A stretch of DNA of 64,000 nt from Leptonemataceae bacterium (GCA_965227295.1 OZ245742.1:4000001-4064000); one strand, 5' to 3'. Positions 6,306 to 64,000 are shown, numbered from the stretch's first letter. Made by a program: numbers and translations. The notes: generated from the letters alone by a model not told the origin.

Positions 6306-6316
6306 AAGAGGGGCGT

Positions 6317-7024: not shown

Positions 7025-7043
7025 TATTCAATCCAAAAGATAG

Positions 7044-17212: not shown

Positions 17213-18433
17213 ATGAACTGCACGCACTGCGGAAAAGCCCTCACCGTCCACGTCCTGGAGGGGCCCGAGGGTCGTTGGGAAGAACGCCTCTACTGCGCGG
17301 CGTGTCGGTCGTTCCAGAACCAGCCCGGCGATCGGCGGTGTCTCTACTGCGGCTCCACGTACCGCCGTTTTCTGCGCTCCGGTCTGCTCGGCTGTGCCCG
17401 TTGTTACGATACCTTCGCGGCCGATCTCCAGGACATCGTCGAGAAGTACCGCGGTCGGACGCGGCCGGCGTCCCCGGGACAGAGGACCGCGCACGGACCG
17501 GGCCGGTTGGCCCGGTCCCGGAGTGCGGAGTTGGCCGGCCTGGTTCTGGCGGAGCAGGAAGATGGGACGGCACCGGAAAATCACCTGGAGGGGAGGCCGC
17601 GCGAAGGGAATGGACCGGATCCAATGGCACCGGAGGACCTGCCCCCACCGGCGGCGACCGTCGGAGCGGCCAACCCGGATCGTTCACCAATCCTGGGCTG
17701 CAGGGTACGCCTGGCCCGGAACATCGTCGGGCTGCCGTTCTGGAACCGTCTGGAAGCTTCCGCCCAGGCCCTTTTGAGCAGCAGCCTGCTTTCGCCGTCC
17801 CAGGCGCTCGGTCTGTACTTTGCCCCCGCGGCCAACTATTCCGGGGAGCCTGTATTCGGTGAGGAACTGCATCGCCTGCAACGCTCCGGGATCCTGCCGG
17901 CCCAGGCCGCGGCCGCCCGTCGGGTCCCCGGAAGGGACGTCTGGATCTATACCGGCGACGAGGATCACTTTCGCATCCAGTGGCTTTTCGAGCACGAGCC
18001 GTCTACGGCCTTCGATCCCGTGCGAGAAGTCGAAACCCTGCACCGATCTATCTCGTCTACTATAGAGGAAATCGCCGAGATAGATACGCTCTACGCCTAC
18101 CAGTGGCACGACGATCATGGTTTTTTGACCGCTTGTCCCGGAATCGGCGGGGCGGGGATCCGGCTCTCGATTCTGCTGGATCTGTACGCACTCATGCGCC
18201 GGGGGCGCTGGTCGATCTGGCGGGAACGGCTGATTCAGGCGGGTTTTGAGGTTCGGGGATCCCGGGGCGAAGGGGCCACGCGCTCCGGCGACGAGCGGGT
18301 GCAGGTCTCGAATCGTTTCTGGACTGCGGATGCGGACCTTCGGGCCGAGGCAGGCCGGTTTTTGGAGATTGTAGGGCGGCTGGCAGCCGCCGAAAGTGTG
18401 GAACGCCGGTCCGGAGGCGGGACATCGCTTTAA
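17213..18433 (+). CDS. McsA-like CxxC domain fused to a divergent McsB-like ATP:guanido phosphotransferase domain
   Basis: Four CxxC pairs including GLLGCARCYDTF, then RVRLARNIVGLPF, DEDHFRIQ, GFLTACP, GFEVRG, VQVSN; upstream of clpC. Confidence 0.75.
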   Translation: MNCTHCGKALTVHVLEGPEGRWEERLYCAACRSFQNQPGDRRCLYCGSTYRRFLRSGLLGCARCYDTFAADLQDIVEKYRGRTRPASPGQRTAHGPGRLARSRSAELAGLVLAEQEDGTAPENHLEGRPREGNGPDPMAPEDLPPPAATVGAANPDRSPILGCRVRLARNIVGLPFWNRLEASAQALLSSSLLSPSQALGLYFAPAANYSGEPVFGEELHRLQRSGILPAQAAAARRVPGRDVWIYTGDEDHFRIQWLFEHEPSTAFDPVREVETLHRSISSTIEEIAEIDTLYAYQWHDDHGFLTACPGIGGAGIRLSILLDLYALMRRGRWSIWRERLIQAGFEVRGSRGEGATRSGDERVQVSNRFWTADADLRAEAGRFLEIVGRLAAAESVERRSGGGTSL

Positions 18434-18698
18434 TTTTTAATTATAGTTCCGACAATATATTGAGAGAAAGTCCGAAAACCCCGGCGGGCATTATTTTCCG
18501 TGACAAAGCCTGACGCCCTGGTTTTCCTGGAATGGGGGCAACTCACACGTCCGAACCCTGCGCCGGCACGGGGAAATTTCGGACGTTGTACACAAATAAA
18601 CAGCCGGCCGCGTCACGGGGGTGCATCCTCTGCTGCAAATCAGTCAAAACAAGGCATGTGGCAGTCGGGTTGGATCCAGGTAGTTTTTGGAGAGCTAT

Positions 18699-21305
18699 AT
18701 GTTCGATTTTACCAAACGAGCAAAACGAGTCATCAACGAGTATGCCCAGCAGGAAGCGAAGCGCCTGGGGCACGACATGATCGGGCCGGAGCACATTTTG
18801 CTCGGACTGCTGCGGGAAGAAGACTCGGTGGCCATCAAGATTCTTAAGAATCTGAACATCGATCTGAACGAACTCAAGAAAGAGGTCGAGCGCCGTTCCA
18901 AGCAGGGCGGGAACACGCTTCTGATCGATATTTCACCGAATCCGGATAAATATCAAAAAATAATCGACTATTCCAAAGAAGAAGCGAAGCGCCTGAAGCA
19001 CAACTACGTGGGCACCGAGCACATCCTGCTCGCTCTTTTGCGCGATAACAACAACGTCGCCGGGGCCGCCCTCGCAAACTTCAGCGTGAACTACTCCGTC
19101 ATTAAGGGCGAGATCCTGCGCATCCTCGGCGTGGCCACGTCGGGATCGTCCTCGTCTTCGCGGCAGGGGTCTTCCGAGAAGTCCCGCACGCCGACCCTCG
19201 ACGAGTTCGCCCGGGATCTTACCCAGCTCTCCCGCGAGAAGAAGCTGGACCCGGTCATCGGTCGGGATCAGGAAATCCAGCGCCTCGTCCAGGTGCTCTG
19301 CCGCAAGACCAAGAACAACCCCGTGCTCATCGGTGAAGCCGGCGTCGGCAAGACCGCCATCGTCGAAGGCCTGGCCGAACGCATCGTCGGTCACGACGTC
19401 CCCGATCTACTGTTCGAGAAGCGCGTCATCGCCCTCGACCTGGCGTCGTTGGTCGCCGGCACGAAGTACCGCGGTGAGTTCGAAGATCGCCTGAAGAAAA
19501 TCATGCGCGAGATTCAGAACTCCAGCAACATCATCGTGTTCATCGACGAGTTGCATACGTTGATCGGTGCCGGTGCCGCCGAAGGCGCCATCGACGCGGC
19601 GAACATGCTGAAGCCGGCTCTTGCCCGCGGTGAGATCCAGTGCATCGGCGCCACGACGCTCACCGAGTTCCGCAAGTACATCGAAAAAGATTCGGCCCTG
19701 GAGCGTCGCTTCCAGTCCATCCTGGTCAAAGAACCGTCCGCCGATGATACCATCCTCATTCTGAAAGGCCTGAAGAAAGCCTTCGAAGCGCATCACAAGG
19801 TCCACTACAGCGACGACTCGCTGGAACTGGCCGTGAAGCTGGCCGAACGTTATATCAACGATCGCTATCTACCGGACAAGGCCATCGACGTCATCGACGA
19901 GGCCGGTTCCCGGGCGCGGCTTTCGAATTCCTCCCGTCCGCAAGAGATCATCGATCTGGAAGAAGAGATCAAAGAACTCGTCCAGAAAAAAGACGACATG
20001 GTCAAGGCGCAGGAGTACGAAAAGGCGGCCCAGATCCGCGACGCCATTAATCTAAAAAAAGAAGTCCTGGAAGAGAAGATCAACCAGTGGCAGGAGCGCA
20101 TCGCCGACTACTCCGTGGACATTTCCCCGGAGGACATCTACGCGGTGATTTCGCTGTGGACCGGGATCCCGCTCGAAAAGATCGAAGAGGGCGAGGCCGA
20201 AAAACTGCTCCGCATGGAAGAAGAGATCGCGGCCCGCGTGGTGGCGCAGTCCGAGGCGGTGCAGCAGGTGGCTCGCGCCGTTCGTCGCGCGCGCACCGGT
20301 TTTAAGGACCACAAGAAACCCTCGGGTTCGTTCATCTTTCTGGGGCCCACCGGCGTCGGCAAAACCGAACTTGCCCGGGCTCTGGCGGACTTTCTCTTCG
20401 GCGACGAGAAGAAGCTCTTCCGCCTGGACATGTCCGAGTACATGGAACCGCACTCCATCTCGAAGCTCATCGGTTCGCCGCCGGGCTACGTGGGCTACGA
20501 TGACGCCGGTCAGCTCTCCGAGTTCGTCCGCCGCAATCCGTACTCGGTGGTGCTTTTCGACGAAGTCGAGAAAGCGCACCCGGATATCTTCAACCTGCTG
20601 CTGCAAATCCTCGACGAGGGTACCTTAACGGATACCCACGGTCGCAAAGTGGACTTCTCGGAGACGATCATCATCATGACGTCGAATCTGGGGGCGCGGG
20701 AAATGCAGCGCGGCGGCAAGCTGGGCTTCGCCGAAGACTCAAGCCGTCGCGAACAGATGAAGAAAGATCGGGTCATGGAAGAGCTCAAGAAGCACTTCAA
20801 CCCGGAATTTCTCAACCGCATCGACGAGATCATCACGTTCCACACGCTCACGAAAGAACACATTCGCAAGATCATCGACATCATGCTCATGCGCATGAAT
20901 CGCCAGCTCCAGGATAAGAAAATCCTGCTCACGATGGACGAGGACGCGAAGGACCTCATCGCCGACAAGGGTTACGACGAAAAGTATGGGGCGCGGCCGT
21001 TACGCCGAACTCTGCAACGCGAAGTAGAGGACTACATGGCGAATCGTATGCTGGAAGGCGCTTACAAAGAGCCCACTGAGATTACGGCGGGCGTGGAGAC
21101 GGTGGAAGATCACAAACTTCTGAAGTACGACGAGAAACCCTGGCCGGGCTACGAGGCCATTCGTCGGGCCCGGGAAGAAGAGATCGCTCGCAAAGAAGAG
21201 GAACTGAACAAACGCAAGGGCGCTCCGTCTCCGGACAGCACCGAGGCCGGCGATGATGATTCGGAGCCGGCCGAGCAGTCCGCCAATACGGGGCAGGTAA
21301 GCTAG
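18699..21305 (+). CDS. clpC: ATP-dependent Clp protease ATP-binding subunit ClpC
   Basis: Clp N repeats, GEAGVGKT and GPTGVGKT Walker A motifs, UVR-type middle domain, GARPLRR. Confidence 0.96.
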
Positions 21306-51014: not shown

Positions 51015-52085
51015 ATGTCCGCAAGTCCCGTCGCCACATCCGAACAAGAAAATCTCCGGTCCCTGCTTCAAGAATTCTACGGCCGGCAAATCTCAAAGAC
51101 CGCCGATCTCGAAACCAACGCCTGCTGCGATGTCAACACCATGCAGTTGCATCGCGAAGCAGTGGCTCTCATTCCAGGGCGCGCCACCGAGAGGTACTAC
51201 GGCTGCGGCAGTCCGTTGCCGGACGACCTGGCCACGTTGAACGGGCTCACCGCGGTGGACCTGGGATCCGGCGCCGGCGTGGACTCCATGATCCTGCGTT
51301 ACTATCTCGGTGAGAGCGGTACGATGATCGGCCTGGACATGACCGACGAACAGCTTGCCGTCGCGCGCGACGCCGGCCGGGAGTTTCTGGAGCGCCTGGG
51401 CTATCCCGCGGACTCCCTGCGTTTCGAAAAAGACTTCATCGAAACGGCGGACAGCATTCCGGACGCCTCGGTGGATCTTGTCATTTCGAACTGCGTCATC
51501 AACCTTTCGCCGCGCAAGGACCTGGTCTACGAAACGATTCAGCGCATTCTGAAACCGAGCGGGGAGTTTTTCATCTCGGACATTGTCTCCGATCGCCGCG
51601 TCGACCTCGCGGACGATCCGGTGCTCGTCGCCGAGTGTCTGGGCCTGGCCCCGTACATCCACGATGCCCACGATACAATGGAGCGCGCCGGTTTCCCGGA
51701 CGTGCGGATCTACTCACAACGCGAGCTGCCGGAGAACGCACGTGTTGCAAAGCGCGGCGAGAACGCGAAGTTTTTCTCGGTGGTGTGGCGCGGCTATAAA
51801 CTGAACGATATGGACCGTCGCTGTGAGGACTACGGTCAGATCGCCACGTATCGTGGGAACCTGGCATCGTCTCCGGCGAAGTTCCGGTTGGATGAAGGCC
51901 ATCTCTTTGAAGCCGGTCGGCCCGTCACGGTCTGCCGCAACACGGCGCGCATGCTTTCGGAGACGCGTCTCGCCCCGTACTTCGACGTCAGCGCGCCCAT
52001 CAAACACTTCGGTTTGTATCAGGACTGCGCCACCCCGGCGGCCCGGAGCGAAAGCACGAATACCTTTGCCGGCGGATGTTGTTGA
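51015..52085 (+). CDS. arsM: Arsenite methyltransferase (ArsM/AS3MT-like)
   Basis: TNACC, YYGCGSP, DLGSGAGVD, GLDMTDEQL, VISNCVINLS, CEDYGQ.A.YRG, terminal GGCC. Confidence 0.85.
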   Translation: MSASPVATSEQENLRSLLQEFYGRQISKTADLETNACCDVNTMQLHREAVALIPGRATERYYGCGSPLPDDLATLNGLTAVDLGSGAGVDSMILRYYLGESGTMIGLDMTDEQLAVARDAGREFLERLGYPADSLRFEKDFIETADSIPDASVDLVISNCVINLSPRKDLVYETIQRILKPSGEFFISDIVSDRRVDLADDPVLVAECLGLAPYIHDAHDTMERAGFPDVRIYSQRELPENARVAKRGENAKFFSVVWRGYKLNDMDRRCEDYGQIATYRGNLASSPAKFRLDEGHLFEAGRPVTVCRNTARMLSETRLAPYFDVSAPIKHFGLYQDCATPAARSESTNTFAGGCC

Positions 52086-52125: not shown

Positions 52126-54558
52126 TTAAAAGTTACTGGCGGGGGCCATGTTGCCGTAGAACTCCAGCACCTCCGGAATCTTCGCTTCCACTTTTCCGCC
52201 GGAGACCTGCACGAACTTGCGTTTCTTCAGAACCTTGAGGCCGCCGCTGGTAATCTTCCTGGCGTCGCGCGTTAAGTAATTCCCGGGATGAGTTTGTACG
52301 AACTCGTCCACCATGGCCGGCAGATCGGCGACGGGCAGGGCGGTTTCGGCCTCGCACAACAATCGCGCGATGATGTGATTCGGCAGCACGCGCAGTTTCT
52401 TCGCCCAGCCCTGCTGGATCTGAAAACCCAGGGCCGTCATGGGATCCTCCGCGTTGATGAACTGCGAAACCCGCACCGGCTCGGCGACGTCCATGAAAAC
52501 GCGGGTGCGGTGTTTTACAAAGGCGCTCACGTCGGTGCTTTTCGCCACACCCGCGAACTCCAGGTCCTCGGGAATGTTTTCGTACGACACGGCCAGAGGG
52601 ACAATGAGAATCTCCGCGCCGGAATGTTGGTAGGCTTCCACCGCCGTCGACAGCAGGCCGGTCTTAATCGGAACAATGCCGCCGGTGCGGCTGCGCGTGC
52701 CTTCCGGGTATACAAGCGAAGGAATGCCCATCTCCAGCATCATGGTGGCGTAACGCGTGAGGCATTCGAGGTACAGAATGTTGCGCGTGCGTTCGCGGTC
52801 CACGGCGTAGGCGCCCAGGGATTTGAGGATCCAGTTCCAGAACGGACTCGTCATGAGATTCGAACCCGCGGCGTAGCGCGGGATCGGCAGGCCGGCGCCG
52901 TAGAGGCCGTAGCCCACTTCCACGGAGTCCAGGTGCGAACGATGCGTGGGGGCGTAGAGAATGTTGTAGCGCGCGGCGAGGGACTTCAGCTCTTCGATCT
53001 CACCGCCCACGTGCGGGATGGCCGAGCCGGGACGGAGGCCGCCGACCAGGGTACGCAACGGGCCGATGGTGTGAATCAACGCCGTGCGCACCGTGGGGCT
53101 GTAGGAGTCCGAGATCTCGTCGACGTAAAACTCGATCAACTCCTCCACCGTTTCGCGAATGTGATCGGGATCGGCCGCGTCCATGGCCTTCCACAACGCG
53201 AGTTCCTGGGGCAGGGCTTCCAGTTCGCGACGATTCTTTTTACGCCGCGCCTTTTCCACGCGGCGCTCCAGGTTCTTTACAATGTTCGGCGCCTGTTTGT
53301 GCACGCGGTCGATCATGCCCCGGGAACCGCTCACGTGGCGGAAGATACGATTTTCGGTGAGCTTCTTGAAGTTGTGCCCGGCGGTATGGGCGAGGCCGAT
53401 TTTTTTCGTCGCCGTGGAATCCTCGTCCGGGGTGGGAATCTTTGGGCGTCCGAACAAAGTAATGAGACTCTCCGGCGTCTTGCGGCGGGAGAGCACGTCG
53501 AAGATCGTCGTGTAGAGCGGTATCTTTACGTCGTGATCCTCGGCGAGTTCGAGAATGGGGGTGAGGGCAAAGGCCCCTTCCACGAGATCGGCGCTCTCGC
53601 TCACCTCACGTTCAATGAACTGCGTCGGCCGAAAGAAAAGTTCAATGCGTTCAAAGAAGCCGGGATCGTTCTCGTGGGATAACGTCTGCCGCATGAACTG
53701 CATGCCGTAACCGCGGTTGCGGCTGTTGGGGGAGGTCGCCGTGGTGACGATGTCCGCGAGCCCGGAGACGCCGAACAACGTTGCCGGCTTCGCGCCCAGG
53801 GCGACACCCAGGCGAAACATTTCTTTGAAGCCCTGACTGACGAGCAGTCCTTGAAGATTCGAGGCCGCCCCGGGCATGACCTCGGCCATGCCGCAGGCGA
53901 TGGCGATGGGATTCTTCAGCGCCCCGCCGATTTCGGTGCCCAGGATATCCGTCGTGGTGGACACGCTTATGAATTCGTTCGTGAGCAGATCCTTGAGCGC
54001 CTGGGCCGTATCCCGATCTTCACAGCCGACGTTGAAGTACGTGTAGTTCGATGCATAGATTTCCGCGAGCAGGCTCGGACCGTTCACCACCGCCACGCGC
54101 AGTTGCCCGGTATCCAGGCCCTTGCGCCGCGCGCTTTCGCGGACGAATTGTGAGAAAGTCCAGAGATGCGAACCGAATTTACGGCGGCTCGCGCGGGACA
54201 GGAGACCCTTCGTAAGAATCACGAACAGGTGAGCGCAGTTCGGCGCGAGGTGATCCAGCAGATGTTCCACCGTATCCTCGAACTGCCGCGACGGCATGGC
54301 GGCGAACAGAGCCTGGGGGCCGTCTTCGAATTCGTCGTACTCGTGGATGACGTCGACATTCTCGTGCAGACGATACGGAGAGCCCAGGACCTGACCCATG
54401 CGGTCCTGGCTCAACCGGCGGGCGTCCCGGGGATCGGGATACCAGAGGCGAACCGGGCCGCCGGTGCCTCCGGCCAGGAGCGAGGACAGGATGAGTCCGA
54501 ACGGGCCGCCGCCCAGGACCGCGAAATTCATTTTTTCGAAATCCAGAGGCTCGGTCAT
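52126..54558 (-). CDS. Fusion: NAD(P)H-dependent glycerol-3-phosphate dehydrogenase plus PlsB/PlsC-type acyltransferase
   Basis: GGGPFG, LTKGL, GGALKNPIAIACG, GLADIVTTATSPNSRN; then PTHRSHLD, YPEGTRSRTG. Confidence 0.88.
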   Translation of the reverse strand: MTEPLDFEKMNFAVLGGGPFGLILSSLLAGGTGGPVRLWYPDPRDARRLSQDRMGQVLGSPYRLHENVDVIHEYDEFEDGPQALFAAMPSRQFEDTVEHLLDHLAPNCAHLFVILTKGLLSRASRRKFGSHLWTFSQFVRESARRKGLDTGQLRVAVVNGPSLLAEIYASNYTYFNVGCEDRDTAQALKDLLTNEFISVSTTTDILGTEIGGALKNPIAIACGMAEVMPGAASNLQGLLVSQGFKEMFRLGVALGAKPATLFGVSGLADIVTTATSPNSRNRGYGMQFMRQTLSHENDPGFFERIELFFRPTQFIEREVSESADLVEGAFALTPILELAEDHDVKIPLYTTIFDVLSRRKTPESLITLFGRPKIPTPDEDSTATKKIGLAHTAGHNFKKLTENRIFRHVSGSRGMIDRVHKQAPNIVKNLERRVEKARRKKNRRELEALPQELALWKAMDAADPDHIRETVEELIEFYVDEISDSYSPTVRTALIHTIGPLRTLVGGLRPGSAIPHVGGEIEELKSLAARYNILYAPTHRSHLDSVEVGYGLYGAGLPIPRYAAGSNLMTSPFWNWILKSLGAYAVDRERTRNILYLECLTRYATMMLEMGIPSLVYPEGTRSRTGGIVPIKTGLLSTAVEAYQHSGAEILIVPLAVSYENIPEDLEFAGVAKSTDVSAFVKHRTRVFMDVAEPVRVSQFINAEDPMTALGFQIQQGWAKKLRVLPNHIIARLLCEAETALPVADLPAMVDEFVQTHPGNYLTRDARKITSGGLKVLKKRKFVQVSGGKVEAKIPEVLEFYGNMAPASNF

Positions 54559-54680: not shown

Positions 54681-57600
54681 ATGAAGAATCTTCTCCCGTT
54701 TTTTATTCAGCAGCGCCTGCACGAAGAGACATACGAGGGCTCCCTCCCGGCCCACACGATGTTTATGGACATCTCGGGCTTCACGCCCATGACCGAGCGG
54801 CTCATGCAGGAAGGAAAAGAGGGCGCGGAGATTCTTTCGGCCGAGATCAATCGGCTGTTCACTGCACTCATCGAAGCGGTCTACAGCCGCGGAGGCATCA
54901 TCACCGGTTTTGCCGGCGACGCCTTTACGGCGATTTTTGACGTGGAGGTCGGCGAGAAGCCGTTGCAGATTCTGGAAGCCGCGCAGGAGATCCAACAGAT
55001 CTTCAACGATCACGGCCACGCGGAGACGCGCTTCGGCAATTTCCAGCTTCAGGTGAAGGTCGGTCTGTCCTCGGGCCTGGTGCAGTGGGGCATCACCGGT
55101 TCCGGGGGCGCGCGTTGTTATTACTTTCGCGGGCCGGCCATCGACGGCTGTGCGCAGTCCGAGCAGCACTGTGACAGCGGCGAGATCATCCTGGACGATG
55201 CGATTTTCGCGAAGTACTCCGACGACGAGCGGCCGTCCGTCGAAGCGAAGGCGCCGGGCTATCATCGTTTCGTGGAACTGTCCGTGGGCACCGAGCGTTC
55301 GGTGGCGGAGGCCCTGTCATTTTTTCATCGCAACGAACAACGGCAGATCTACACCGAAACGGCCCTGGAATTTTTTCCCAGGGCGGCCATCGAGGCGCCG
55401 GCCGGAGAGTTTCGTAACATCCTGTGTTGTTTTGTGTCGCTGCGCAGTCCGGAGGATCACGACGAACTGGACGCCCTGGCCGCGCGACTGCGCGAACTCT
55501 CCGACGGCTACGAGGGGTACTTCAACAACCTGGACTTCGGCGATAAGGGTGGTACGGCATTGTTCGTTTTCGGCGCACCGACGTCTCACGAGGATGACGG
55601 CAGCCGGGCGGCGAACTTCGCCCTCGAGGTCCGCTCGTCCTTCGGGGAGCGCGTGCGGATCGGATTAAACTACGGCACGGCCTTCGCCGGCATGATCGGC
55701 TCGGACATTCGCTGTACGTATACGGTCGAGGGAGATGCCGTAAATACGGCCGCGCGGCTCATGACGTCCGCGGAGTGGGGAGAGATCCTGACCACCGCGG
55801 CGACGGCGCAGTTCCTCGGCCCCCTCTTCGCATGCGAGGATGCGGGCCGGCGAGAATTCAAAGGCAAGTCCGAAGCGATAGCCGTGAGCAAACTCACCGA
55901 TAGAAAAGAAGCAACGTTCGAGGACTTCGACGCATCGCTCTTCGTCGGCCGCGAGGCGGAACTGGAAGAGTTGAGCAAGGACTTTCGGACGTTACTCGAC
56001 GATCGTCGTTTCGCCGGTGTACGTTATATTTACGGCGAGGCGGGCAGCGGCAAGTCGCGTTTTCTGCATGAAGTCTTTGCGAAGTACGGCGCGCCCGACG
56101 CTTCCGGGGACCGGGTGGATTTCGCGTTTACCCACGCGGACGGGATTCTCAAACGAAGCATGAATCCTTTCGTGAACTACTTCGTTACGCAGTTCGGCAC
56201 CCACGAGATCGATGACCCGGTCGCTCGTCGAGACGCCGTAGACGGAAGGATCACGGCTCTGCTCGGGCAAATCGAAGCCATGCCGGTACCCGACGACGAG
56301 CACTTGCGCGGACACCGGGAGACGGTGCTCGCCGATCTCTGGCGGACGCGTTCGCTCCTCGGTTACCTGGTGGACGCCGACGTGAGCGGCAGCCTCTACG
56401 AACAGCTCGACGTCAAAGGGCGCTTCGAGAACACCCTGATCGCGATCAAAGAGTACTTTAAGGCCCTGGCGTTGATTCGGCCCACTGTCATCGTCCTGGA
56501 AGATCTGCACTGGGTCGACAGTGACTCGTTAAGTGTGATTGAAAACATGTTACGCTACGTCGACGAATTGCCGCTGCTGGTCCTGGTTTCCGGCCGCTAT
56601 CGGGACGACGGCACCCGCCCGCGCCTCCGCCTGGTCGACGACGTCGTCGTGCGCAGCGTGGAGCTGTCCGCCCTCGAACCTCCGGCGGTGCAGGAGCTTG
56701 CCGGCCATCGCCTCGGCGGAGAGATTGCGGCGAATCTGCTCCAGTTTATCGGTGAGCGGACCCGGGGCAATCCGTTCTACATAACGGAGTTCTGTACGTA
56801 TCTGCAACAAAACGAGTTGCTGGCGAACCAGGCCGGCGTCCTGGACCTTGCCGACACGAACGTGGCGGACATTCCCGCGAGCGTCAACGCCCTCGTCACC
56901 GCCCGTATCGATCGACTGTCCCTGGAATTAAAAGAAGCCGTGCAGATTGCGGCGGTGCTCGGTCGCGAGTTCGATGTGCGCGTGTTGGGACGATTGCTCG
57001 GCCGGGAGGACATCGCCTCCGTTCTCGAACAGGGTCGCTCCGAACAAATCTGGGCGCCCACGGAAATCCAGGATGTGTGCACGTTTCAGAACGGCCTGCT
57101 GCAGGAGGTCGCCTACGAAATGCAGTTGCGGGATCGCCTGCGCGGAATTCACGGCCGGGCCGCGGAGATCCTGGTGGAACGCTACGGCGAAAATCCTGCC
57201 CGGGCCGCGGAAGTGGCCTATCACTACGAGCAGGCGGAGAATGACGACGGCGCGCGCCGGTACTACGGCCTCGCGGCGGACTACGCCTACGACAACTACA
57301 AGAGCGACAAGGCCCAGGAATTCTTCGACAAACTCCTGGACTATGCACAGGACACAGACGCAACCATCGCCATTCTGGAACGTAAGGTGAATTTACTGGA
57401 ACTTACGGGCCGCTGGGACGAGGCCCTGGGCATCATCAACGACGGGCTGCAACTTGCCGGCGAGGATCAACAGAAGGCCGGCGAGTGGAAGGCGCGCATG
57501 GGAGAGGTCTATCAGAAAAAAGGCGACTATGATCGCGCCGCGACCTACCTCTTCGAAGCGGCGAATCTGGGCAAAGCTCTGAATGCCGACCGATTGCTCG

Positions 57601-58679
57601 CCGACGCTCACGGTCATCTGGGGCGTAATTACTGGAGCACCGGTCGTTACGATAAGGCGCTGGAGTGTTTCGATGAAGCCGTCGAAGCGAATCGTCGCCT
57701 GAACGACCGCCGGGGCATCGCGTTGAGCCAGTACTATGCCGGCGTCGTATACCGGGATCGTAACGAGTACGACAGGGCCATGCAGCTTTACAATGACAGT
57801 CTGCGCACTTTCGAAGAGATCGGCGACCGGCGCTACGCAACGTACCCGCTCTACGATATCGGAATCATTCACCAGTACCAGGGGCGTCTGGCGGAAGCCC
57901 GGGAGTACTTCGAAAAAACCGAGAAGCTGTACGCCGAGATCGGCTATCGCAGCGGTTCTTCGGCGACCCTGCTGAACCTTGGCGTCATCGAGATGCGCCG
58001 GGGTGAGTACGATAAGGCCCTGGAATACTTCGCGCACGCGCTTTCGGTGGCGGAGGAAATCGGCGAGTCCATGGCCGTGGGTTATACGCTGTTCAGCATT
58101 GGTACGGCTTATTATCATCTCCACCGCTACGACGAAACGCTCAAGCACTTCCAGCAGGCCTTTACAATCATGCGTAAGATCGGTGCGCGCGGTTACTACG
58201 GTTACGTCTTCGCGTACCTGACGTGCACGTTCGCGCGGACCAACAAAGCCGCGAAGGCCCTGCACGCGGCGCTCCAGCACTTAAAGAACATCCAGGAACT
58301 CGGCGGTTCCGATGTGGAGAACGGGCGCACGCACCTGGGAATCGCCCTCGTGTTGGCCCAGGGCGGGAAGTTCGGTCCCAACGCGCGTAAGCTGCTGGAC
58401 GAGATCCGCTCTGTGACCGGCCTGCCGGACAAGGCGGATGCGTACTTTGAGTTCGCGGTGCAGACGGCCCGCAAGGCGGAGTACGTCATGACCCTGGTGC
58501 CGGCCCTGCGGGAGTACGGGGCCTACCTGGCCGGGCGGGCCTCCCGGGCCCCCTGGTTCGCGGAGCGGGCGAGGGATTGCTTGGCGGAGGCTCATAGCCT
58601 GGCGCAGTCCATGGGCCTCGACGGCGAGCGAGTGCTCATTGAGGAATACGCCGGCAGTCACGGCATCGAAATCGGTTAG
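54681..58679 (+). CDS. Tandem class III cyclase domains plus STAND ATPase plus TPRs (soluble adenylyl cyclase-like architecture)
   Basis: FMDISGFTPMTE, FAGDA, GDKG, GDAVNTAARL, FVGREAEL, GEAGSGKS, VLEDLHWVD, GNPFY, TPRs. Confidence 0.9.
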   Translation: MKNLLPFFIQQRLHEETYEGSLPAHTMFMDISGFTPMTERLMQEGKEGAEILSAEINRLFTALIEAVYSRGGIITGFAGDAFTAIFDVEVGEKPLQILEAAQEIQQIFNDHGHAETRFGNFQLQVKVGLSSGLVQWGITGSGGARCYYFRGPAIDGCAQSEQHCDSGEIILDDAIFAKYSDDERPSVEAKAPGYHRFVELSVGTERSVAEALSFFHRNEQRQIYTETALEFFPRAAIEAPAGEFRNILCCFVSLRSPEDHDELDALAARLRELSDGYEGYFNNLDFGDKGGTALFVFGAPTSHEDDGSRAANFALEVRSSFGERVRIGLNYGTAFAGMIGSDIRCTYTVEGDAVNTAARLMTSAEWGEILTTAATAQFLGPLFACEDAGRREFKGKSEAIAVSKLTDRKEATFEDFDASLFVGREAELEELSKDFRTLLDDRRFAGVRYIYGEAGSGKSRFLHEVFAKYGAPDASGDRVDFAFTHADGILKRSMNPFVNYFVTQFGTHEIDDPVARRDAVDGRITALLGQIEAMPVPDDEHLRGHRETVLADLWRTRSLLGYLVDADVSGSLYEQLDVKGRFENTLIAIKEYFKALALIRPTVIVLEDLHWVDSDSLSVIENMLRYVDELPLLVLVSGRYRDDGTRPRLRLVDDVVVRSVELSALEPPAVQELAGHRLGGEIAANLLQFIGERTRGNPFYITEFCTYLQQNELLANQAGVLDLADTNVADIPASVNALVTARIDRLSLELKEAVQIAAVLGREFDVRVLGRLLGREDIASVLEQGRSEQIWAPTEIQDVCTFQNGLLQEVAYEMQLRDRLRGIHGRAAEILVERYGENPARAAEVAYHYEQAENDDGARRYYGLAADYAYDNYKSDKAQEFFDKLLDYAQDTDATIAILERKVNLLELTGRWDEALGIINDGLQLAGEDQQKAGEWKARMGEVYQKKGDYDRAATYLFEAANLGKALNADRLLADAHGHLGRNYWSTGRYDKALECFDEAVEANRRLNDRRGIALSQYYAGVVYRDRNEYDRAMQLYNDSLRTFEEIGDRRYATYPLYDIGIIHQYQGRLAEAREYFEKTEKLYAEIGYRSGSSATLLNLGVIEMRRGEYDKALEYFAHALSVAEEIGESMAVGYTLFSIGTAYYHLHRYDETLKHFQQAFTIMRKIGARGYYGYVFAYLTCTFARTNKAAKALHAALQHLKNIQELGGSDVENGRTHLGIALVLAQGGKFGPNARKLLDEIRSVTGLPDKADAYFEFAVQTARKAEYVMTLVPALREYGAYLAGRASRAPWFAERARDCLAEAHSLAQSMGLDGERVLIEEYAGSHGIEIG

Positions 58680-58700: not shown

Positions 58701-59051
58701 TTAATCAATATTAATGGCGATGCGTTTTACGAAGAACTCGCCGGGTTCCCCGTCTTCGGCTTCTTCGCGGACCACGCCGTCCAACTGCATCACCTTTCCG
58801 GTGTAGAACTCCCGGAGCATGCCGGTGAGTTTCCCGCTGATGATGTAGCGACGTTTCCCGTCCTGGACCGTTTCCGTGAGGATGAGGCGTTTGCCTTCCG
58901 TATGCAGGCGGCCGACCTTACGGACAAAATCCTCCGTCACGTTGGTCTCGCTTTCCGCGGATCCCGCGCAGGCGGTCGGCCCCGCCAGTGCAAGCGTCAG
59001 GATCGCGCAGGTTAGGATGGCATGAGCAGGACGTAAATACTTTGTTAGCAT
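58701..59051 (-). CDS. Small putative lipoprotein
   Basis: MLTKYLR...LTLALAGPTAC signal/lipobox-like; divergent from the sensor-kinase operon. Confidence 0.6.
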   Translation of the reverse strand: MLTKYLRPAHAILTCAILTLALAGPTACAGSAESETNVTEDFVRKVGRLHTEGKRLILTETVQDGKRRYIISGKLTGMLREFYTGKVMQLDGVVREEAEDGEPGEFFVKRIAINID

Positions 59052-59250
59052 AGTTGAAACAACAGAAACATACAATGTAGAGCAAGGTCAGCGAACCCAG
59101 CATCCTTACATCCGGTGGAATTACAAGAGATAATCCGTCGATTCGCTTACGCACTTATACGTAAAACCTTAGAGTATTTCCACCGGAAAACATGAAAAAT
59201 ATACATTTGATTTGACACGGGACTTCAGACGGGTGCACGCTTCCGACGCA

Positions 59251-59580
59251 ATGAGAGGGTCGGTCAGGATCGACGTTCTTCAATATACGGAAGGCGTGGA
59301 GCCGGAAGACGAAGACGGCGAAGATTACTCCGGGATTCGTACGGCGGCTGTAGAGCATCGGCGGGACGTCCTGCTGTCGGTGCAGTCGGCCAGCCGCGAG
59401 GCTGTACTCTCCGAGCTGATTGACGGGGATGTGCGGGAGATTCTGGTCCTGGAGCACACTGTCGTCGACATCTACGCCGGGGAAGACAACCGCGATGTAG
59501 TGGAAGTACGGGGGTTTCGCCACGTCGCCGGTAACGGCTATGAACGTTGCCGGCTCGTGTTCTCACCGGGGACACCGTGA
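59251..59580 (+). CDS. Small acidic hypothetical protein, translationally coupled to the sensor kinase
   Basis: ATG at 59251; its TGA overlaps the GTG of the next gene (GTGA 59577-59580). Confidence 0.55.
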   Translation: MRGSVRIDVLQYTEGVEPEDEDGEDYSGIRTAAVEHRRDVLLSVQSASREAVLSELIDGDVREILVLEHTVVDIYAGEDNRDVVEVRGFRHVAGNGYERCRLVFSPGTP

Positions 59581-60893
59581 CCGGGCAATTGCTGCTGCAA
59601 AGAATCTTCGGCCTGCCCGGCGATCTCTTCACGACGGCCTCGGCTCGTTTCGTTCGAAGCGTGCAGCTCTACGAATCCAACTTCCTGTGGATGTGCTCCG
59701 TGGGCGGCGCCTTCTTTCCGGTCTACTGGTTCGTCTGGAGTCATGTCTTCCCGCAGCCTTACGAGAACCTGGCGTTACGATCCGTCGGCATGGTCTTAAC
59801 CTTCGGCCTGGCCCTCAGCCGTTACTGGCCGCCCACGTTGCGCGTGCGCTGGCTGGTACCTTACGCCTACGTCACACTCCTGTTCGTGTTCCCGTTTTTC
59901 TTTACGTACATGACACTCATGAACGGGGCCGTGCGGGCCTGGGTCATGTCGGCGCTGGTGGCGTATTTTTTGATGATTCTACTCATCGATTGGATTAATG
60001 TCATTGTGCTGTTCAGTCTGGGTACGGGGGCCGCGTATGCGGCGTTCTACTACGCTACCGACGGTCGGCCCATGCCGCCCGTTTACGTCGAAGACCTGAC
60101 GGTCATCCTGTTTTTGATTGTGATGGGTTCGCTGTTCAACTACCGGGCGGAGATGCTGCGCCGGGAGCGCGCCCGGGCCATGTTCCTGCTCGGCGCGCGC
60201 ATGGCCCACGAGATGCGCACGCCCCTGGCCGGCATCAAGATCGGGGTATCCGGCATTGCCCGGCAACTGGAACGCCTGTTCGAAAAAGCCGGCAAGGAAC
60301 AACGCCGACGGATGGCAGAGTTCGACCATCTGAAGCAGGATATCGTCTCCCAGGCAAACTATGCCGGCACGATCATCGACATGTTGCTTTTGCATACCGC
60401 GCCGGGGCAGAAGCTGGAACCGGATGAACTTGAACCCATCGGGGTTCGGGAAATCGTAGAGACGACTCTGGCCAACTATCCGTTTATTTCGAACGAAGAG
60501 CGGGCCCTGGTGGTCCACGAACCGGGGCCCGACGCCGTCTTCTGCGGTAAGCGGACCCTGGTCATCTGTGTCCTGTACAATCTACTCAAGAACTCACTCT
60601 TCGAAGTGCATACGGCCGGTGACGGAACCATTCGCATCTACGCCGTGCGCAACAGTTCGGAAGGCGTGGTGCACCTGTACGTTCGCGACACCGGGCCGGG
60701 CATCCCGCCGCACGTCTTGCCCCACGTCTTTGATCAGTTCTTCACCACGAAGCGCGGTTTCGAAGGTGCCGGCGTCGGACTCTGGAACGTACGGAACATT
60801 ATGGAAAGCCTGGGCGGTCGCATCTATGTGCGTTCCCAAACCGGCGAGTACGCCGAGTTCGAGCTCGTGTTTCCGTTAAGTGATAAGTGTTAA
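59577..60893 (+). CDS. cqsS: CqsS/LqsS-type alpha-hydroxyketone sensor histidine kinase (no receiver domain)
   Basis: FPVYWFVW...FPQPYENLALR, PFFFTYMTLMN, WVMS, six TMs, H-box AHEMRTPL, NLLKNS, DTGPGI, FFTTK, GVGL. Confidence 0.88.
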   Translation: MTGQLLLQRIFGLPGDLFTTASARFVRSVQLYESNFLWMCSVGGAFFPVYWFVWSHVFPQPYENLALRSVGMVLTFGLALSRYWPPTLRVRWLVPYAYVTLLFVFPFFFTYMTLMNGAVRAWVMSALVAYFLMILLIDWINVIVLFSLGTGAAYAAFYYATDGRPMPPVYVEDLTVILFLIVMGSLFNYRAEMLRRERARAMFLLGARMAHEMRTPLAGIKIGVSGIARQLERLFEKAGKEQRRRMAEFDHLKQDIVSQANYAGTIIDMLLLHTAPGQKLEPDELEPIGVREIVETTLANYPFISNEERALVVHEPGPDAVFCGKRTLVICVLYNLLKNSLFEVHTAGDGTIRIYAVRNSSEGVVHLYVRDTGPGIPPHVLPHVFDQFFTTKRGFEGAGVGLWNVRNIMESLGGRIYVRSQTGEYAEFELVFPLSDKC

Positions 60894-60897
60894 GGTG

Positions 60898-60980
60898 GCA
60901 CAGGAGGTCGAGAGCTTCTGAGACATTGCATTGGCTCTCAAACATTTCAAAAGATCTCTCTATCCCTCTTCCTCCTGTGC
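60898..60980. terminator. Long imperfect hairpin between the convergent cqsS and cqsA genes
   Basis: GCACAGGAGG (60898-60907) and CCTCCTGTGC (60971-60980) form a perfect 10-bp IR. Confidence 0.4.
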
Positions 60981-60985
60981 AAAGC

Positions 60986-62170
60986 TCAAGCCATGCCCGC
61001 AAACGGATCCGGCCACATTTCCGGGCGCACCTGTTCCCGCACACCGACGATCACGGCCTTGATTAACTCCACATCATCCTCACTCAGTGCCGAGTGAAAA
61101 CTGAGGCGTAACAACGTTCGGTCCGGCGGGGTGGTGGGTTTCACGAATACCGCCCCGAAGACGTCGAAGTCTTCGAGGCGATCGCGTAGAAACGTGGTGC
61201 TCTCCTCGGAACCGGCCAGGAGTGGAATGATCGGCGAGGCCGACAGGGCCGCGCAGGTGTAACCCTCCACGATCATATGATTGCGCACGTCCTGGACCAC
61301 CTCGAACAGGCGTTGCCGCCGGTCGTCGGCATCACGCACGATCTCTAACGTACGCTGAATGCGAGCTACGTCGTGGGGTTCGAGCATTGTCGAGAAGATG
61401 GCCGGGCGGGCCTCCCAGGGAAAGTACGAGAGGATGCGCTGCGGTCCGAAGATGACGCCGGCCCGGCTGGCGAAGGCCTTGGCCAGGCTCGCGGTAATGA
61501 AATTGACCCGATCGCTCAGGCCGAGATCGGCCACCAGGCCGGCCCCGTGCGGGCCGAAGAGGCCCAGGGAATGCGACTCGTCCACGACCAGGGTGCAATC
61601 GTAGCGTTCACATACCTCGCAGATTGCCTGTAGCGGGGCCCTGGTCCCCAGGGCGGAGTAGACCGAATCCACCACGACTGTTCCGGAACCGTAGCGGCGA
61701 ATGCGGGACTCCAGGTGATTTACGTCGTTGTGCTTGAACATGCGTGCCGTGGCGCCGGCGCTGTGTGCTCCCTCCCAGAGCGACATGTGTGCAAAACGAT
61801 CGATATAGACCGGCGCCTGCCGGTCGGCAATGGACTGGATCAGGCCGACGTTGGCCGCGTAGCCCGACTGGCAGAGGACCGCAGCGTCCATCTGTACGTA
61901 CTCCGCCAGGCTTTGCTGTAGCCTGGAGTAGGGGCCGTCGTACTCGTTGAGAAAGACCGCCGACATCTGCGGCCCGCTTCCTTCTTCGAGCAATCGCCGG
62001 CTCTGGGCCACCAAAATGGCCGGATGCCGGGACAATGCCAGGTAGTCGTTCGAGTTCAGCAGAATCGAACCACTGCCGGGCACCCGGCCGTTGAAGACGT
62101 TTCCGCCATGCCTGGCGATCCGCGTCTCATAAAACTTATCCACACGCTCTGTCAAAAATTCTGGTAACAT
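60986..62170 (-). CDS. cqsA: CqsA/LqsA-type PLP-dependent alpha-hydroxyketone autoinducer synthase
   Basis: LPEFL N-terminus, SNDYLAL, MSAVFL, QSGYAANVGLIQ, YIDRFAHMSLWEG, VDESHSLG, ITASLAKAF (PLP Lys), PAIFS, FLRDRLE; next to a CqsS-like kinase. Confidence 0.92.
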   Translation of the reverse strand: MLPEFLTERVDKFYETRIARHGGNVFNGRVPGSGSILLNSNDYLALSRHPAILVAQSRRLLEEGSGPQMSAVFLNEYDGPYSRLQQSLAEYVQMDAAVLCQSGYAANVGLIQSIADRQAPVYIDRFAHMSLWEGAHSAGATARMFKHNDVNHLESRIRRYGSGTVVVDSVYSALGTRAPLQAICEVCERYDCTLVVDESHSLGLFGPHGAGLVADLGLSDRVNFITASLAKAFASRAGVIFGPQRILSYFPWEARPAIFSTMLEPHDVARIQRTLEIVRDADDRRQRLFEVVQDVRNHMIVEGYTCAALSASPIIPLLAGSEESTTFLRDRLEDFDVFGAVFVKPTTPPDRTLLRLSFHSALSEDDVELIKAVIVGVREQVRPEMWPDPFAGMA

Positions 62171-62259
62171 AGTTACTAAAAAGCGTTAGATACGTAAGAA
62201 TCTGCCTACGCATTTTCTTATGCAAATATGAAATATACGCATATTTTCGTACAGCAAAA

Positions 62260-62373
62260 TTGCGAGGGTATCTCCCCCTCTGACGCTCCTCGCGCGGCGC
62301 CATCCATGGCTTAGCGCGAGGAGGCGCGGCCTTCCTGGCCGCGTGACTGTCAGAGGGGGAGACACCCTCGCAA
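62260..62373. repeat. 114-bp palindromic element (25-bp terminal IR enclosing two hairpins)
   Basis: TTGCGAGGGTATCTCCCCCTCTGAC / GTCAGAGGGGGAGACACCCTCGCAA (24/25); inner CTCCTCGCGC/GCGCGAGGAG and CGCGGCC/GGCCGCG. Confidence 0.75.
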
Positions 62374-62494
62374 AGGCGGGGGGAATTTCGTGCGGTATTG
62401 TCGTCTTCGGATGTGGCCCGGTAGCCAAATGCCCCCAATCGGAGGGCATCGCTGACAACCATTGACTTATCCCCGTTTTCCGACACACCAAAAT

Positions 62495-63337
62495 TCAAGC
62501 GACCTCTAAATCCTCGAATTGATTCGGGCTCATAAACCCGATGCTACTATGAACCCTCCGGGGGTTGTAGAAGAGTTCGATGAACTCAAACACAGCCTCC
62601 CGGGCATGATCCACATCTACAAACTCGTCCGTGCCGATCCCTTCCTTGAGGATCGAGAAGAACGATTCCACACACGCATTGTCCCAACAGTTCCCCCGCC
62701 GGCTCATGCTTTGCACGATGTTGTGGCGACGGAGTTCCACGCGGAACTCACGCGATGCATACTGCACGCCCTGATCCGAATGGAACATCAGCCCCTTGCC
62801 CGGCTGCCTCGTCTTCACGGCCATATCCAGCGCCGCCACGGCGAGTTGCGCAGGCATACGATCCTGCACGTCCCAACCGATGATGCGACGCGAGAACAGG
62901 TCCATCACAACGCATAGATAGACCCAGCCAATGCGCGTTTTCAGGAACGTGATATCCGAAGCCCAGACACGATTAGGTTGCGCCACGTTGAAGTTACGGC
63001 CGAGCAGATTCGGAGACGCCTTGAAGCGATGATTCGAGTCCGTCGTGCAGACCTTGAATTTTCGCCTTTGTTTCCCGCTGATTCCAGCCTGTTTCATCAG
63101 TCGGTGGATACGTGTTTTGCCCACGTATTCGCCCCAACCGCGCAGGATTTCCCGGATCTTGGCGACGCCGCAGCGACCTTGCTCGTGATAGGCCTGCACG
63201 ATCAAACGCGTAAGTCTGACATCTTCACGATCACGCGCCGACGGTGCACGCTTTACGAAGCGATAGAACGATTTTCGCGAAACCTCAAGTACGCGGGCCA
63301 TGCGACCGATTGGAAACTCCTCGCGATGAGCTTCCAT
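62495..63337 (-). CDS. IS3 OrfB DDE transposase (expressed as OrfAB by -1 frameshift)
   Basis: PNRVWASDIT, HSDQGVQY, SRRGNCWDNACVESFF; slippery A-AAA-AAG at 63385-63379 opens into this frame. Confidence 0.95.
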   Translation of the reverse strand: MEAHREEFPIGRMARVLEVSRKSFYRFVKRAPSARDREDVRLTRLIVQAYHEQGRCGVAKIREILRGWGEYVGKTRIHRLMKQAGISGKQRRKFKVCTTDSNHRFKASPNLLGRNFNVAQPNRVWASDITFLKTRIGWVYLCVVMDLFSRRIIGWDVQDRMPAQLAVAALDMAVKTRQPGKGLMFHSDQGVQYASREFRVELRRHNIVQSMSRRGNCWDNACVESFFSILKEGIGTDEFVDVDHAREAVFEFIELFYNPRRVHSSIGFMSPNQFEDLEVA

Positions 63338-63348
63338 GAACTCGAAAA

Positions 63349-63642
63349 CTACAGTTCTCTCGATAGCATGGCCGCGAACTTTTTTAGGATCGTGTTATCC
63401 ATCTTCAGTTCGGCGTTCTCTTTACGAAGCTGCTCCAGCTCCTCTTCGACGCTGAGCTTGCTGCGCTTCCCTTTGCCTTTTTCTTCTTTGGCCTCTCGAT
63501 CCATATACTCCTTCTTCCACTCACGCAAAGTCCAGTAGCTGATCCCCAGCGACGCCGACACTTCTTTCAGGGTGCGCTCACCCTCCACTACGGCCTTCAC
63601 GGCCTCCTCGCGGAATTCCCGCGGATACCTCTTCTTTTTCAC
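63349..63642 (-). CDS. IS3 OrfA (HTH plus leucine zipper)
   Basis: RYPREFREEAV, LGISYWTLREW, ELEQLRKENAELKMDNTILKK. Confidence 0.95.
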   Translation of the reverse strand: MKKKRYPREFREEAVKAVVEGERTLKEVSASLGISYWTLREWKKEYMDREAKEEKGKGKRSKLSVEEELEQLRKENAELKMDNTILKKFAAMLSREL

Positions 63643-63790
63643 TCTGACCTCCTTATTCAGGACGCCCGATTTAGTGTATCAGTTTTCGGGGATAAGCCAC
63701 ATTGCTAACCAGCGCTAATCACACATTAGCTTTATCAAACCAGACTCTGTGTCCTCTGTGCCTCTGTGGCAAAGGGACACTCAGCCCGGC

Positions 63791-64000
63791 CTAGTTCAGA
63801 CCTTTGCTGAGGGCATAGCGGATGAGGGCGGCTTTGCGATGGATGCCCAGCTTTTGCTTGATGTGCTCGATGTGCTTGTTGACCGTCGTGTAGGAGATGC
63901 CCAGTTCGGTGCCGATCATCTTGGACGAGTGCCCCTGGGCCACACAGATGAGCACCTGGAGTTCGCGGTCGGAGAGCGTGGCGAGCTGGCCTTCGCGGCG
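63791..64000 (-). CDS. LuxR/NarL-family HTH regulator, C-terminal part (5' end outside the window)
   Basis: Manual translation: ...LATLSDRELQVLICVAQGHSSKMIGTELGISYTTVNKHIEHIKQKLGIHRKAALIRYALSKGLN*. Confidence 0.92.
   Translation of the reverse strand, partial: RREGQLATLSDRELQVLICVAQGHSSKMIGTELGISYTTVNKHIEHIKQKLGIHRKAALIRYALSKGLN

Follow-up and report, generated by a model that had tools for sequence, protein, structure and literature searches.

A 64-kb segment of the genome of a Leptonemataceae bacterium (GCA_965227295.1, OZ245742.1:4000001-4064000), referred to below as the window, was found to carry near its end a synthase gene and a sensor kinase gene of the CqsA/CqsS and LqsA/LqsS type, the pair that directs alpha-hydroxyketone (AHK) quorum sensing. 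Coordinates are those of the whole window, in which 52 distinct open reading frames (ORFs) were scanned against the family libraries Pfam and NCBIfam. The kinase and synthase genes are convergent, with a gap of 92 bp between them. A small ORF precedes the kinase gene, and the 3'-end of a regulator gene lies upstream of the synthase gene. All four genes had been listed in an initial annotation of this DNA and were found at the positions given there; its central proposal, an AHK-type locus in a spirochete, was upheld by family scores, the ranking of solved structures, gene linkage and the placement of the host. The features at the centre of this work are as follows.

59251-59580, plus strand: gene for a small acidic protein (109 aa), with coding-like codon usage and three homologues
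59577-60893, plus strand: CqsS/LqsS-type sensor histidine kinase with six transmembrane (TM) helices, HATPase_c and HisKA, no Response_reg
60986-62170, minus strand: CqsA/LqsA-family autoinducer synthase dependent on pyridoxal phosphate (PLP), 394 aa, intact, NF005526
62236-62251, no strand: degenerate 7-2-7 palindrome, candidate regulator-binding site, 66-81 bp 5' of the synthase start
63791-64000, minus strand: 3'-end (69 codons) of a NarL/FixJ-type response-regulator gene, GerE, the rest lying past the window end

The synthase

The product of 60986-62170 scored 488.1 bits against NF005526, the NCBIfam model for alpha-hydroxyketone-type quorum-sensing autoinducer synthases, for which the curated equivalog cutoff is 428. 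It fell below the cutoffs of the sister models BioF (241.3 vs 426.45 bits), Kbl (198.2 vs 460), serine palmitoyltransferase (204.8 for the best model, vs 500) and ALAS (168 vs 338.55), and grouped with neither BioF nor Kbl, the two families against which the initial annotation had asked that it be checked. The nearest solved structures were those of CqsA from Vibrio cholerae (PDB 2wk8, 2wk7 and 3hqt; 311 bits, E 7e-92, residues 2-370), and the next PDB family was serine palmitoyltransferase at 149 bits. The motif TASLAKAF lines up with TASLAKTF of the solved CqsA and includes the lysine of TASLAK, which we take to be the PLP-binding residue. The codon-usage log-odds of the gene (0.336) is like that of real genes. 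The description of an intact CqsA/LqsA-like synthase thus stands, given the 394-aa open frame, the NF005526 score and the top structure match, and 60986-62170 is, as judged by these scores, a true CqsA/LqsA-family synthase gene.

A profile built on an alignment of the closest synthases and scanned over one genome per species recovered 248 relatives, and the loci of the best 80 were compared. Among these 80, two are from outside the Pseudomonadota, L001 and L027, and the remaining 78 are proteobacterial. L001 is a 6.44-Mb contig titled 'Leptospirales bacterium' and encodes a synthase 68% identical to that of the window; L027 is an 81,922-bp contig of a metagenome-assembled genome (MAG), with a synthase 66% identical. 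Relatives have been named automatically 'CAI-1 autoinducer synthase' and 'CqsS' by public pipelines (NCBI, JGI). Pairing of cqsA with a CqsS/LqsS-type sensor gene was observed in the window, in L001 and L027, and in 71 further loci.

For 91 synthases a quick tree was calculated by maximum likelihood and left unrooted because no paralogue (BioF or Kbl) occurs in the window or the loci. The synthases of the window, L001 and L027 formed one clade of six with three metagenome sequences, with an SH-like approximate likelihood-ratio (SH-aLRT) support of 100. The stem of this Leptospirales-type clade is 1.06 changes per site long, and in the unrooted tree the clade is nested in no proteobacterial group. 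The nearest CqsA sequences outside it, 44-52% identical, are from Paraburkholderia and other Pseudomonadota.

The sensor kinase

The longest ORF for the kinase, 59547-60893 on the plus strand, begins with TTG and encodes 448 aa, and the form starting at GTG 59577 has 438 aa; the public protein collection holds the 438-aa form. HATPase_c was matched at 76.8 bits and HisKA at 23.1 bits, slightly under its cutoff of 26.9. No Response_reg domain was found with Pfam, and the C-terminus lies 3 residues past the catalytic and ATP-binding (CA) domain. In an alignment of 36 sequences H221, N349, D381, G383, G385 and G411 (448-aa numbering) are invariant or nearly so; H221 is the phospho-acceptor histidine, and the N, G1 and G2 boxes are kept. 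FixL kinase domains were among the best solved-structure matches of the cytoplasmic part (E 6e-15).

The AlphaFold2 model built on the same alignment (mean predicted local distance difference test score, pLDDT, 87.3) displays six membrane-length helices, at residues 25-67, 75-93, 96-125, 130-146, 149-170 and from 181 onward, the sixth of which runs unbroken into the dimerization and histidine phosphotransfer (DHp) helix bearing the phospho-acceptor histidine. A six-TM sensor with its sixth helix entering the kinase part is the design described for CqsS and LqsS in the available parts of PMC4821796 and PMC3376566. The modelled helices, the conserved catalytic boxes and the lack of a Response_reg match agree with the intact six-TM, receiver-less CqsS/LqsS-like kinase that had been proposed, and its domain make-up resembles that of LqsS and not that of the hybrid CqsS of Vibrio.

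A search with residues 1-205 found the gene adjoining cqsA in 73 of the 80 loci, with E values from 1e-48 to 8e-4. No Pfam family was found for this region; MASE8 was a weak lead on one relative (E 0.009), and in the ESM Atlas the membrane domain fell into unnamed clusters, with MASE8 on 10% of one of them. In a collection of 5.8 billion proteins the membrane region has 55 relatives at E<=1e-5, six of which JGI has annotated as 'CAI-1 autoinducer sensor kinase/phosphatase CqsS'. One kinase relative that is 57% identical (P0252) comes from a 3,731-bp contig, equal in size to that of a CqsA relative (P0002).

Two further features of the kinases were recorded. The convergent 3'-ends of kinase and synthase genes overlap by 67-70 nt in L001 (11116-11182) and L027 (11116-11185), and the C-terminus of the kinases encoded there extends about 44 residues beyond that of the window kinase. 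The DHp residues following the phospho-acceptor histidine were considered as evidence for a switch of partner and were dropped, the differences being shared with a Comamonadaceae clade that has LqsR.

Host and conservation of the locus

No relative of the window DnaK was found above 90% identity, and DnaK, MiaB, Ugd and others form singleton clusters at 90%. The best DnaK matches are 86-87% identical, followed by MAGs named Leptospiraceae or Leptospirales (80-84%) and by Leptospira species (74-78%). One of the best matches (P0129, 87%) is on a contig of 81,922 bp, the size of the L027 contig. DnaK placement, which the initial annotation had named as the check on its Leptospiraceae-like host, thus gave Leptospiraceae/Leptospirales MAGs as the nearest named matches and then Leptospira, and from this placement the host is a spirochete of the Leptospirales, of a high-G+C lineage.

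The gene order methyl-accepting chemotaxis protein (MCP), GpsA/PlsB, cyclase, kinase, cqsA, regulator is identical in the window, L001 and L027, with proteins 48-71% identical. As the same collinear segment occurs in two other Leptospirales assemblies, the locus is resident; the contig is neither chimeric nor proteobacterial, either of which would have refuted the initial annotation. The G+C content of the kinase and synthase genes (0.584-0.607) is similar to that of the remainder of the window and drops to 0.55 only in the final 2 kb, where the insertion sequence described below is located.

Regulators encoded at cqsA loci

An LqsR-like gene was detected by tblastn with two LqsR-like proteins (E<=1e-5) in 73 of the 80 loci. 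The 78 proteobacterial loci comprise these 73, three with a receiver fused to the kinase and two on cut contigs. The seven loci without LqsR are accordingly L001 and L027, the hybrid-kinase loci L040, L048 and L073, and the cut contigs L046 and L069; of the fused receivers, those of L040 and L048 were confirmed and that of L073 was deduced from a 906-aa ORF. Best E values for an LqsR-like sequence were 1.2 in the window (six-frame), 0.13 in L001 and 0.34 in L027, and no such gene was found within 21 kb around cqsA in L001 or L027. The library scans of the 52 window ORFs gave no match to a receiver (REC), Hpt or sigma-54 activator domain. With the LqsR query reaching no better than E 1.2, the earlier statement that the window holds no LqsR or LuxU/LuxO is in accord with these scans. 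Of all complete loci, only the three from the Leptospirales lack an LqsR-like gene as well as a fused receiver. The two-gene cluster is not new in itself, since clusters with only lqsA and lqsS homologues are already noted in reviews (PMC3376566, in the part available).

In the loci of Paraburkholderia xenovorans (L006) and Sulfuritalea (L019) a receiver-only protein of 333-343 aa is encoded between kinase and synthase. The match of this protein to PDB entry 6sy9, 'Response regulator', spans its whole length (E 1.5e-65); the entry is presumably Legionella LqsR. Other regulators occur near the kinase in some proteobacterial loci. In the Sulfuritalea locus an acyl-homoserine lactone (AHL)-type LuxR gene (6292-7050; Autoind_bind and GerE) adjoins the cqsS-like kinase gene, and in L020 (4786-5406) and L026 (15829-16434) a NarL-type REC+GerE protein is encoded <=2.5 kb from the kinase, besides LqsR.

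The visible part of the regulator upstream of the window synthase has a GerE domain (67.2 bits, residues 8-63 of 69). Orthologues are encoded in L001 (7359-8030, 223 aa) and L027 (9186-9833, 215 aa) and are 68-71% identical to it over the shared C-terminal part. Both consist of Response_reg (86 bits) and GerE, and their receivers keep the acidic pair, the phospho-acceptor aspartate, the threonine and the lysine. They resemble the MctR, MadR and NarL-type models, all below the curated cutoffs (MctR 149.5 vs 300; NarL 132.4 vs 250). In each of the three genomes no more than 2 kb separates cqsA from the regulator gene upstream. In L027 nothing is interposed, the regulator gene ending 167 bp ahead of cqsA, and synthase, regulator and the next gene have consecutive NCBI protein accessions. 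In L001 two dehydrogenase/epimerase genes on the opposite strand lie between them, and in the window an IS3-family element. The initial annotation had placed a LuxR/NarL helix-turn-helix gene upstream of the synthase and co-oriented with it; the co-orientation and the GerE domain were found as described. The two genes are not direct neighbours in this genome, as a complete IS3, absent from that annotation, intervenes. A further CqsA relative (P0004) and a regulator of the L001 cluster come from contigs of equal size, 21,798 bp.

When the cqsA upstream regions of the three genomes were aligned, a 7-2-7 inverted repeat, TACGCAGnnCTGCGTA, became apparent. This is perfect and present as a single copy in L001 (9927-9942) and in L027 (9926-9941), at the same place 5' of cqsA and with differing 2-bp spacers. 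In the window the corresponding palindrome (62236-62251) is mismatched at 3 of the 14 specified positions and lies 66-81 bp before the synthase ATG. No further copy with <=1 mismatch was found in the 1.51 Mb of loci plus the window. The 7-2-7 shape recalls NarL sites, and the conserved palindrome fits NarL-type control of cqsA as a candidate site. The suggestion of the initial annotation that the output may run through a NarL-type regulator likewise fits the data, in that the predicted receivers of the orthologues are complete and neither LqsR nor a fused receiver was found.

A second copy with three mismatches (59148-59163) is situated about 90 bp 5' of the small ORF-kinase pair, just after a sigma-70-like promoter match (59105-59134); taken alone, neither is above chance. 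Scans of the window for consensus promoters and terminators gave counts no higher than those in shuffles.

Insertion sequence and hairpin upstream of the synthase gene

The region between the regulator and synthase genes of the window contains an IS3-family element and a hairpin.

62260-62373, minus strand: branched hairpin of very high stability with UUUU after it, located between the synthase promoter region and the site of the IS3
62463-63699, minus strand: IS3-family insertion sequence in the regulator-synthase intergenic region, NF033516, rve, HTH_Tnp_1
62495-63337, minus strand: IS3 orfB
63349-63642, minus strand: IS3 orfA

The IS3 is complete, with a length of 1,237 bp and ends TG...CA, and it is the sole copy in the window. 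Its transposase matches NF033516 (327.1 bits, cutoff 160), rve (98.6 bits) and HTH_Tnp_1. The terminal inverted repeats (62463-62492 and 63670-63699) are 30 nt long and 73% complementary, and the target triplet ATG is repeated directly on both sides, at 62460-62462 and 63700-63702. Close to where orfA ends there is a slippery run, AAAAAAG (63385-63379), orfB being read in the -1 frame. The element begins 91 bp past the regulator stop and ends 289 bp before the synthase start, such that both coding regions are undisturbed.

The arms of the hairpin are 25 nt long and 96% complementary, and its folding energy is -96.3 kcal/mol (z = -10.25). It occurs once in the window and has no alignable counterpart in L001 or L027. 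It may be a terminator, either of the regulator gene or for read-through from the insertion sequence, or a small mobile repeat.

The small acidic protein and flanking genes

The 109-aa protein has an isoelectric point of 4.56, with 23 Asp and Glu against 12 Lys and Arg. The TGA stop of its gene overlaps the GTG start of the kinase as GTGA, and the codon-usage log-odds (0.315) is coding-like. An exhaustive search of 1.84 billion representatives returned three homologues, one of them 79% identical along the whole protein and the others 45% and 37%. The small ORF is a real gene, as it has coding-like codon usage and homologues at the protein level. One homologue (P0249), a kinase homologue (P0313) and a DnaK (P0131) are from contigs of equal size, 554,785 bp, which suggests that a single metagenome contig holds all three. 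Nothing was above cutoff in Pfam or NCBIfam (HepT-like_2 18.3 bits, cutoff 27), and only unnamed clusters were found in the ESM Atlas. The AlphaFold2 model (pLDDT 81.4) is a six-strand all-beta protein with a disordered acidic loop. A Foldseek search gave no PDB fold match at E<=0.001, the best TM-score being 0.43, to lipocalin-like, CheF and other beta proteins. No tblastn match was obtained in any of the 80 loci, L001 and L027 included, and the gene is, as far as these searches indicate, lineage-restricted. Of the coupling to the kinase that had been reported, the gene itself and its GTGA overlap are real; a functional tie is not established, since the gene is missing from the loci of the two relatives.

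The cyclase gene precedes this region.

54681-58679, plus strand: class III cyclase/AAA_16/TPR protein, 1332 aa, Guanylate_cyc, AAA_16 and TPR (Pfam)

In L001 and L027 its orthologues (52% identity) are directly 5' of the kinase and on the same strand, and the spacer between cyclase and kinase is only about 130-200 bp. In the window the same interval contains, besides the small acidic ORF, a 124-aa ORF (58701-59075, minus strand) with a hydrophobic N-terminus ending ...LALAGPTAC, which is lipoprotein-like and has coding-like codon usage (0.286). No family match was found for it, nor a counterpart in any of the 80 loci. Together the two ORFs account for about 870 bp that are missing from L001 and L027 between cyclase and kinase. 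Two tandem cyclic-nucleotide-binding proteins are encoded at the opposite end of the window (4407-5254). From the gene neighbourhood, the AHK module may be connected with cAMP.

Further upstream, 52126-54558 (minus strand) encodes an 810-aa fusion of a GpsA-like glycerol-3-phosphate dehydrogenase and a PlsB-like acyltransferase, 54-55% identical to its counterparts in L001 and L027. An ArsM-like methyltransferase gene (51015-52085, plus strand) is found between the MCP and GpsA/PlsB genes, and has no counterpart there in L001 or L027. At 17213-21305 a 406-aa protein with an McsB-like arginine-kinase domain (weak, E 9e-16) is encoded directly 5' of a ClpB/ClpC-type ATPase; the pairing of McsB-like proteins with Clp ATPases is better known from Firmicutes.

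Discussion

The best overall explanation of these data, and one that we consider likely, is that the locus is a chromosomal AHK quorum-sensing module that has long been resident in the Leptospirales lineage. It would work as follows. By analogy with Vibrio and Legionella, as described in the available parts of PMC3376566 and PMC5289986, the synthase would condense an acyl-CoA with an amino-acid-derived donor to yield a diffusible signal, a 3-hydroxy-4-ketone or the corresponding amino compound. This lipophilic molecule would bind in the six-helix bundle and switch the kinase between autophosphorylation at His221 and a phosphatase or off state, again on the model of the partly available accounts of Vibrio and Legionella. 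The phosphoryl group would then pass directly from the kinase to the NarL/FixJ-type regulator encoded upstream of the synthase, and the regulator would bind the 7-2-7 palindrome 5' of cqsA and close an autoregulatory loop, a one-step circuit in place of LqsR or LuxU-LuxO. The small acidic protein, coupled to the kinase in translation, would be a lineage-specific addition.

The components of this mechanism have precedents, from which the locus departs in its predicted output. The Legionella Lqs system (LqsA, LqsS/LqsT, LqsR) and the Janthinobacterium JqsA-JqsS-JqsR system have a synthase of the same family and clustered synthase and kinase genes, and LqsS is likewise a non-hybrid six-TM kinase with HisKA and HATPase only, according to the available part of PMC3376566. 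The window cluster differs from both in the lack of an LqsR-type regulator and of hdeD, in the NarL/FixJ-type REC+GerE regulator upstream and in its spirochete host. The Vibrio CqsA/CqsS-LuxU-LuxO system shares the six-helix membrane design (PMC4821796, part available), and V. cholerae CqsA is the nearest solved structure to the synthase. However, Vibrio CqsS is described in the accessible text of PMC3376566 as a hybrid whose C-terminal receiver signals to LuxU and LuxO, whereas the window kinase is without a receiver and no gene for an Hpt or sigma-54 activator was seen among the 52 ORFs. The clusters of Paraburkholderia, Sulfuritalea, Salinisphaera and other Pseudomonadota encode the closest sequenced synthases beyond the clade (44-50% identical), and likewise have a convergent or adjacent pair and kinases of about 440-470 aa without a receiver; they carry an LqsR-like gene between kinase and synthase, while in the Leptospirales loci L001 and L027 the kinase gene abuts or overlaps the 3'-end of the synthase gene. 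The proposed output is closest in form to FixL-FixJ and NarX-NarL, in which a HisKA-type kinase also acts on a REC+GerE regulator at an inverted repeat. The difference lies in the input, here an AHK-type six-TM sensor, and in the regulator orthologues being below every named NarL-family cutoff.

Direct wiring is favoured by the lack of LqsR in the cluster, by orthologous regulators of REC+GerE architecture with intact phospho-acceptor residues, by the closeness of regulator gene and cqsA in all three genomes in spite of differing insertions, and by the palindrome that L001 and L027 keep perfect while its spacer differs. Several observations weigh on the other side. Adjacency of the regulator and cqsA may merely reflect the collinearity of related genomes, the flanks being collinear too, and by itself has little weight because the whole region is collinear in the three genomes. 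The receiver is known from the orthologues alone, that of the window regulator being past the window end. The window copy of the palindrome is degenerate, and at three mismatches the two matches in the window are at chance level, at least two having been obtained in 54 of 100 shuffles; the pattern was moreover derived from the same loci in which it was counted, and the count is circular. Insertion of the IS3 could have altered expression, and the window covers 64 kb of a 5.94-Mb genome, elsewhere in which an LqsR-, LuxU- or LuxO-type partner is possible. For direct phosphotransfer to the NarL-type regulator and binding of the palindrome, taken jointly, we would put the chance a little below even. 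The more specific proposal, that AHK signalling in the Leptospirales is a plain two-component loop from an LqsS-like sensor through a NarL/FixJ regulator to the synthase gene via the palindrome, is put forward tentatively, as clearly less than an even prospect; in that reading the small acidic beta-protein, as modelled, might modulate the sensor in this lineage.

A genuine AHK pair whose kinase acts on a regulator encoded elsewhere, LqsR-like or other, with the neighbouring NarL-type regulator serving a different circuit, is a serious possibility, if short of a probable one. Besides the collinearity and the limited view of the genome, it is supported by the genes that separate regulator and cqsA, two of opposite strand in L001 and the IS3 in the window, and by the LqsR-like partner present in 73 of 78 proteobacterial loci, which is the family's usual solution. 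Against it are the negative searches for an LqsR-like gene in the window and in the 21 kb around cqsA in L001 and L027, those for other REC, Hpt or sigma-54 activator domains in the window ORFs, and the palindrome of GerE-type shape conserved just 5' of cqsA. That the module is decaying or silent, the IS3 having uncoupled the synthase from its regulator or promoter, appears unlikely. A complete IS3 with a fresh-looking 3-bp duplication does lie 289 bp 5' of the synthase start, and the palindrome that is perfect in the relatives is degenerate in the window. Yet the frames of synthase and kinase are open over their full length, as is that of the regulator so far as it is visible, with catalytic motifs conserved and a codon usage like that of housekeeping genes. 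The insertion falls in no coding region and spares the 289 bp next to the synthase. The genes are separated also in L001, and co-transcription is therefore not required.

Two remaining explanations concern the nature of the product and the origin of the DNA. The CqsA-like enzyme might make a lipid-like metabolite and the kinase sense something else, with no signalling between cells; the family belongs to the alpha-oxoamine synthases, which include enzymes of lipid and cofactor synthesis, and the available parts of PMC5289986 and PMC3566124 give no product for any non-proteobacterial member. The synthase score above a curated equivalog cutoff and the tight linkage to a CqsS-type sensor gene, in 73 of 80 loci plus the window, make this quite improbable. 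Contamination with proteobacterial DNA, chimeric assembly or transfer in the very recent past could account for the nearest CqsA sequences outside the Leptospirales clade being those of Paraburkholderia and other Pseudomonadota, at 44-52% identity. However, the locus has an unremarkable G+C content and lies within a contig of 5,938,550 bp, the same order is found in two independent Leptospirales assemblies, and a long, fully supported stem separates the clade from all proteobacterial sequences. A contaminant or chimera is already refuted on the present data, and this explanation as a whole has a very slight probability.

To our knowledge, AHK signalling has been studied experimentally only in Proteobacteria (Vibrio, Legionella, Janthinobacterium and Photobacterium), and to that extent the statement of the initial annotation that it is characterised in this group holds. 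The family itself extends further: in the available parts of the sources, homologues of the system are already listed in Chlorobiaceae (PMC5289986) and the sensor membrane domain is known in Bacteroidetes and Chlorobia (PMC4821796). No report linking the AHK signal family to Leptospira or the Leptospirales was found in the literature, as judged mostly by titles and the openings of abstracts, supplements aside. Standard family models recognise the genes, and relatives have been annotated automatically; the locus does not represent a novel type of system but a further member of the known AHK family, probably with variant wiring.

The module, resident and intact in free-living Leptospira relatives, would bring the spirochetes into the range of AHK signalling and, if the assignment is correct, would be the first cognate pair of autoinducer synthase and receptor described in the phylum Spirochaetota. 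The proposed circuit, if true, would be the simplest wiring known for this signal family, and a natural case of the same sensor being re-plugged to a different output regulator. It would help in studying how quorum-sensing circuits acquire new wiring once they have passed from one phylum to another, and the set of sensor, regulator and promoter would be compact and orthogonal for use in synthetic biology.

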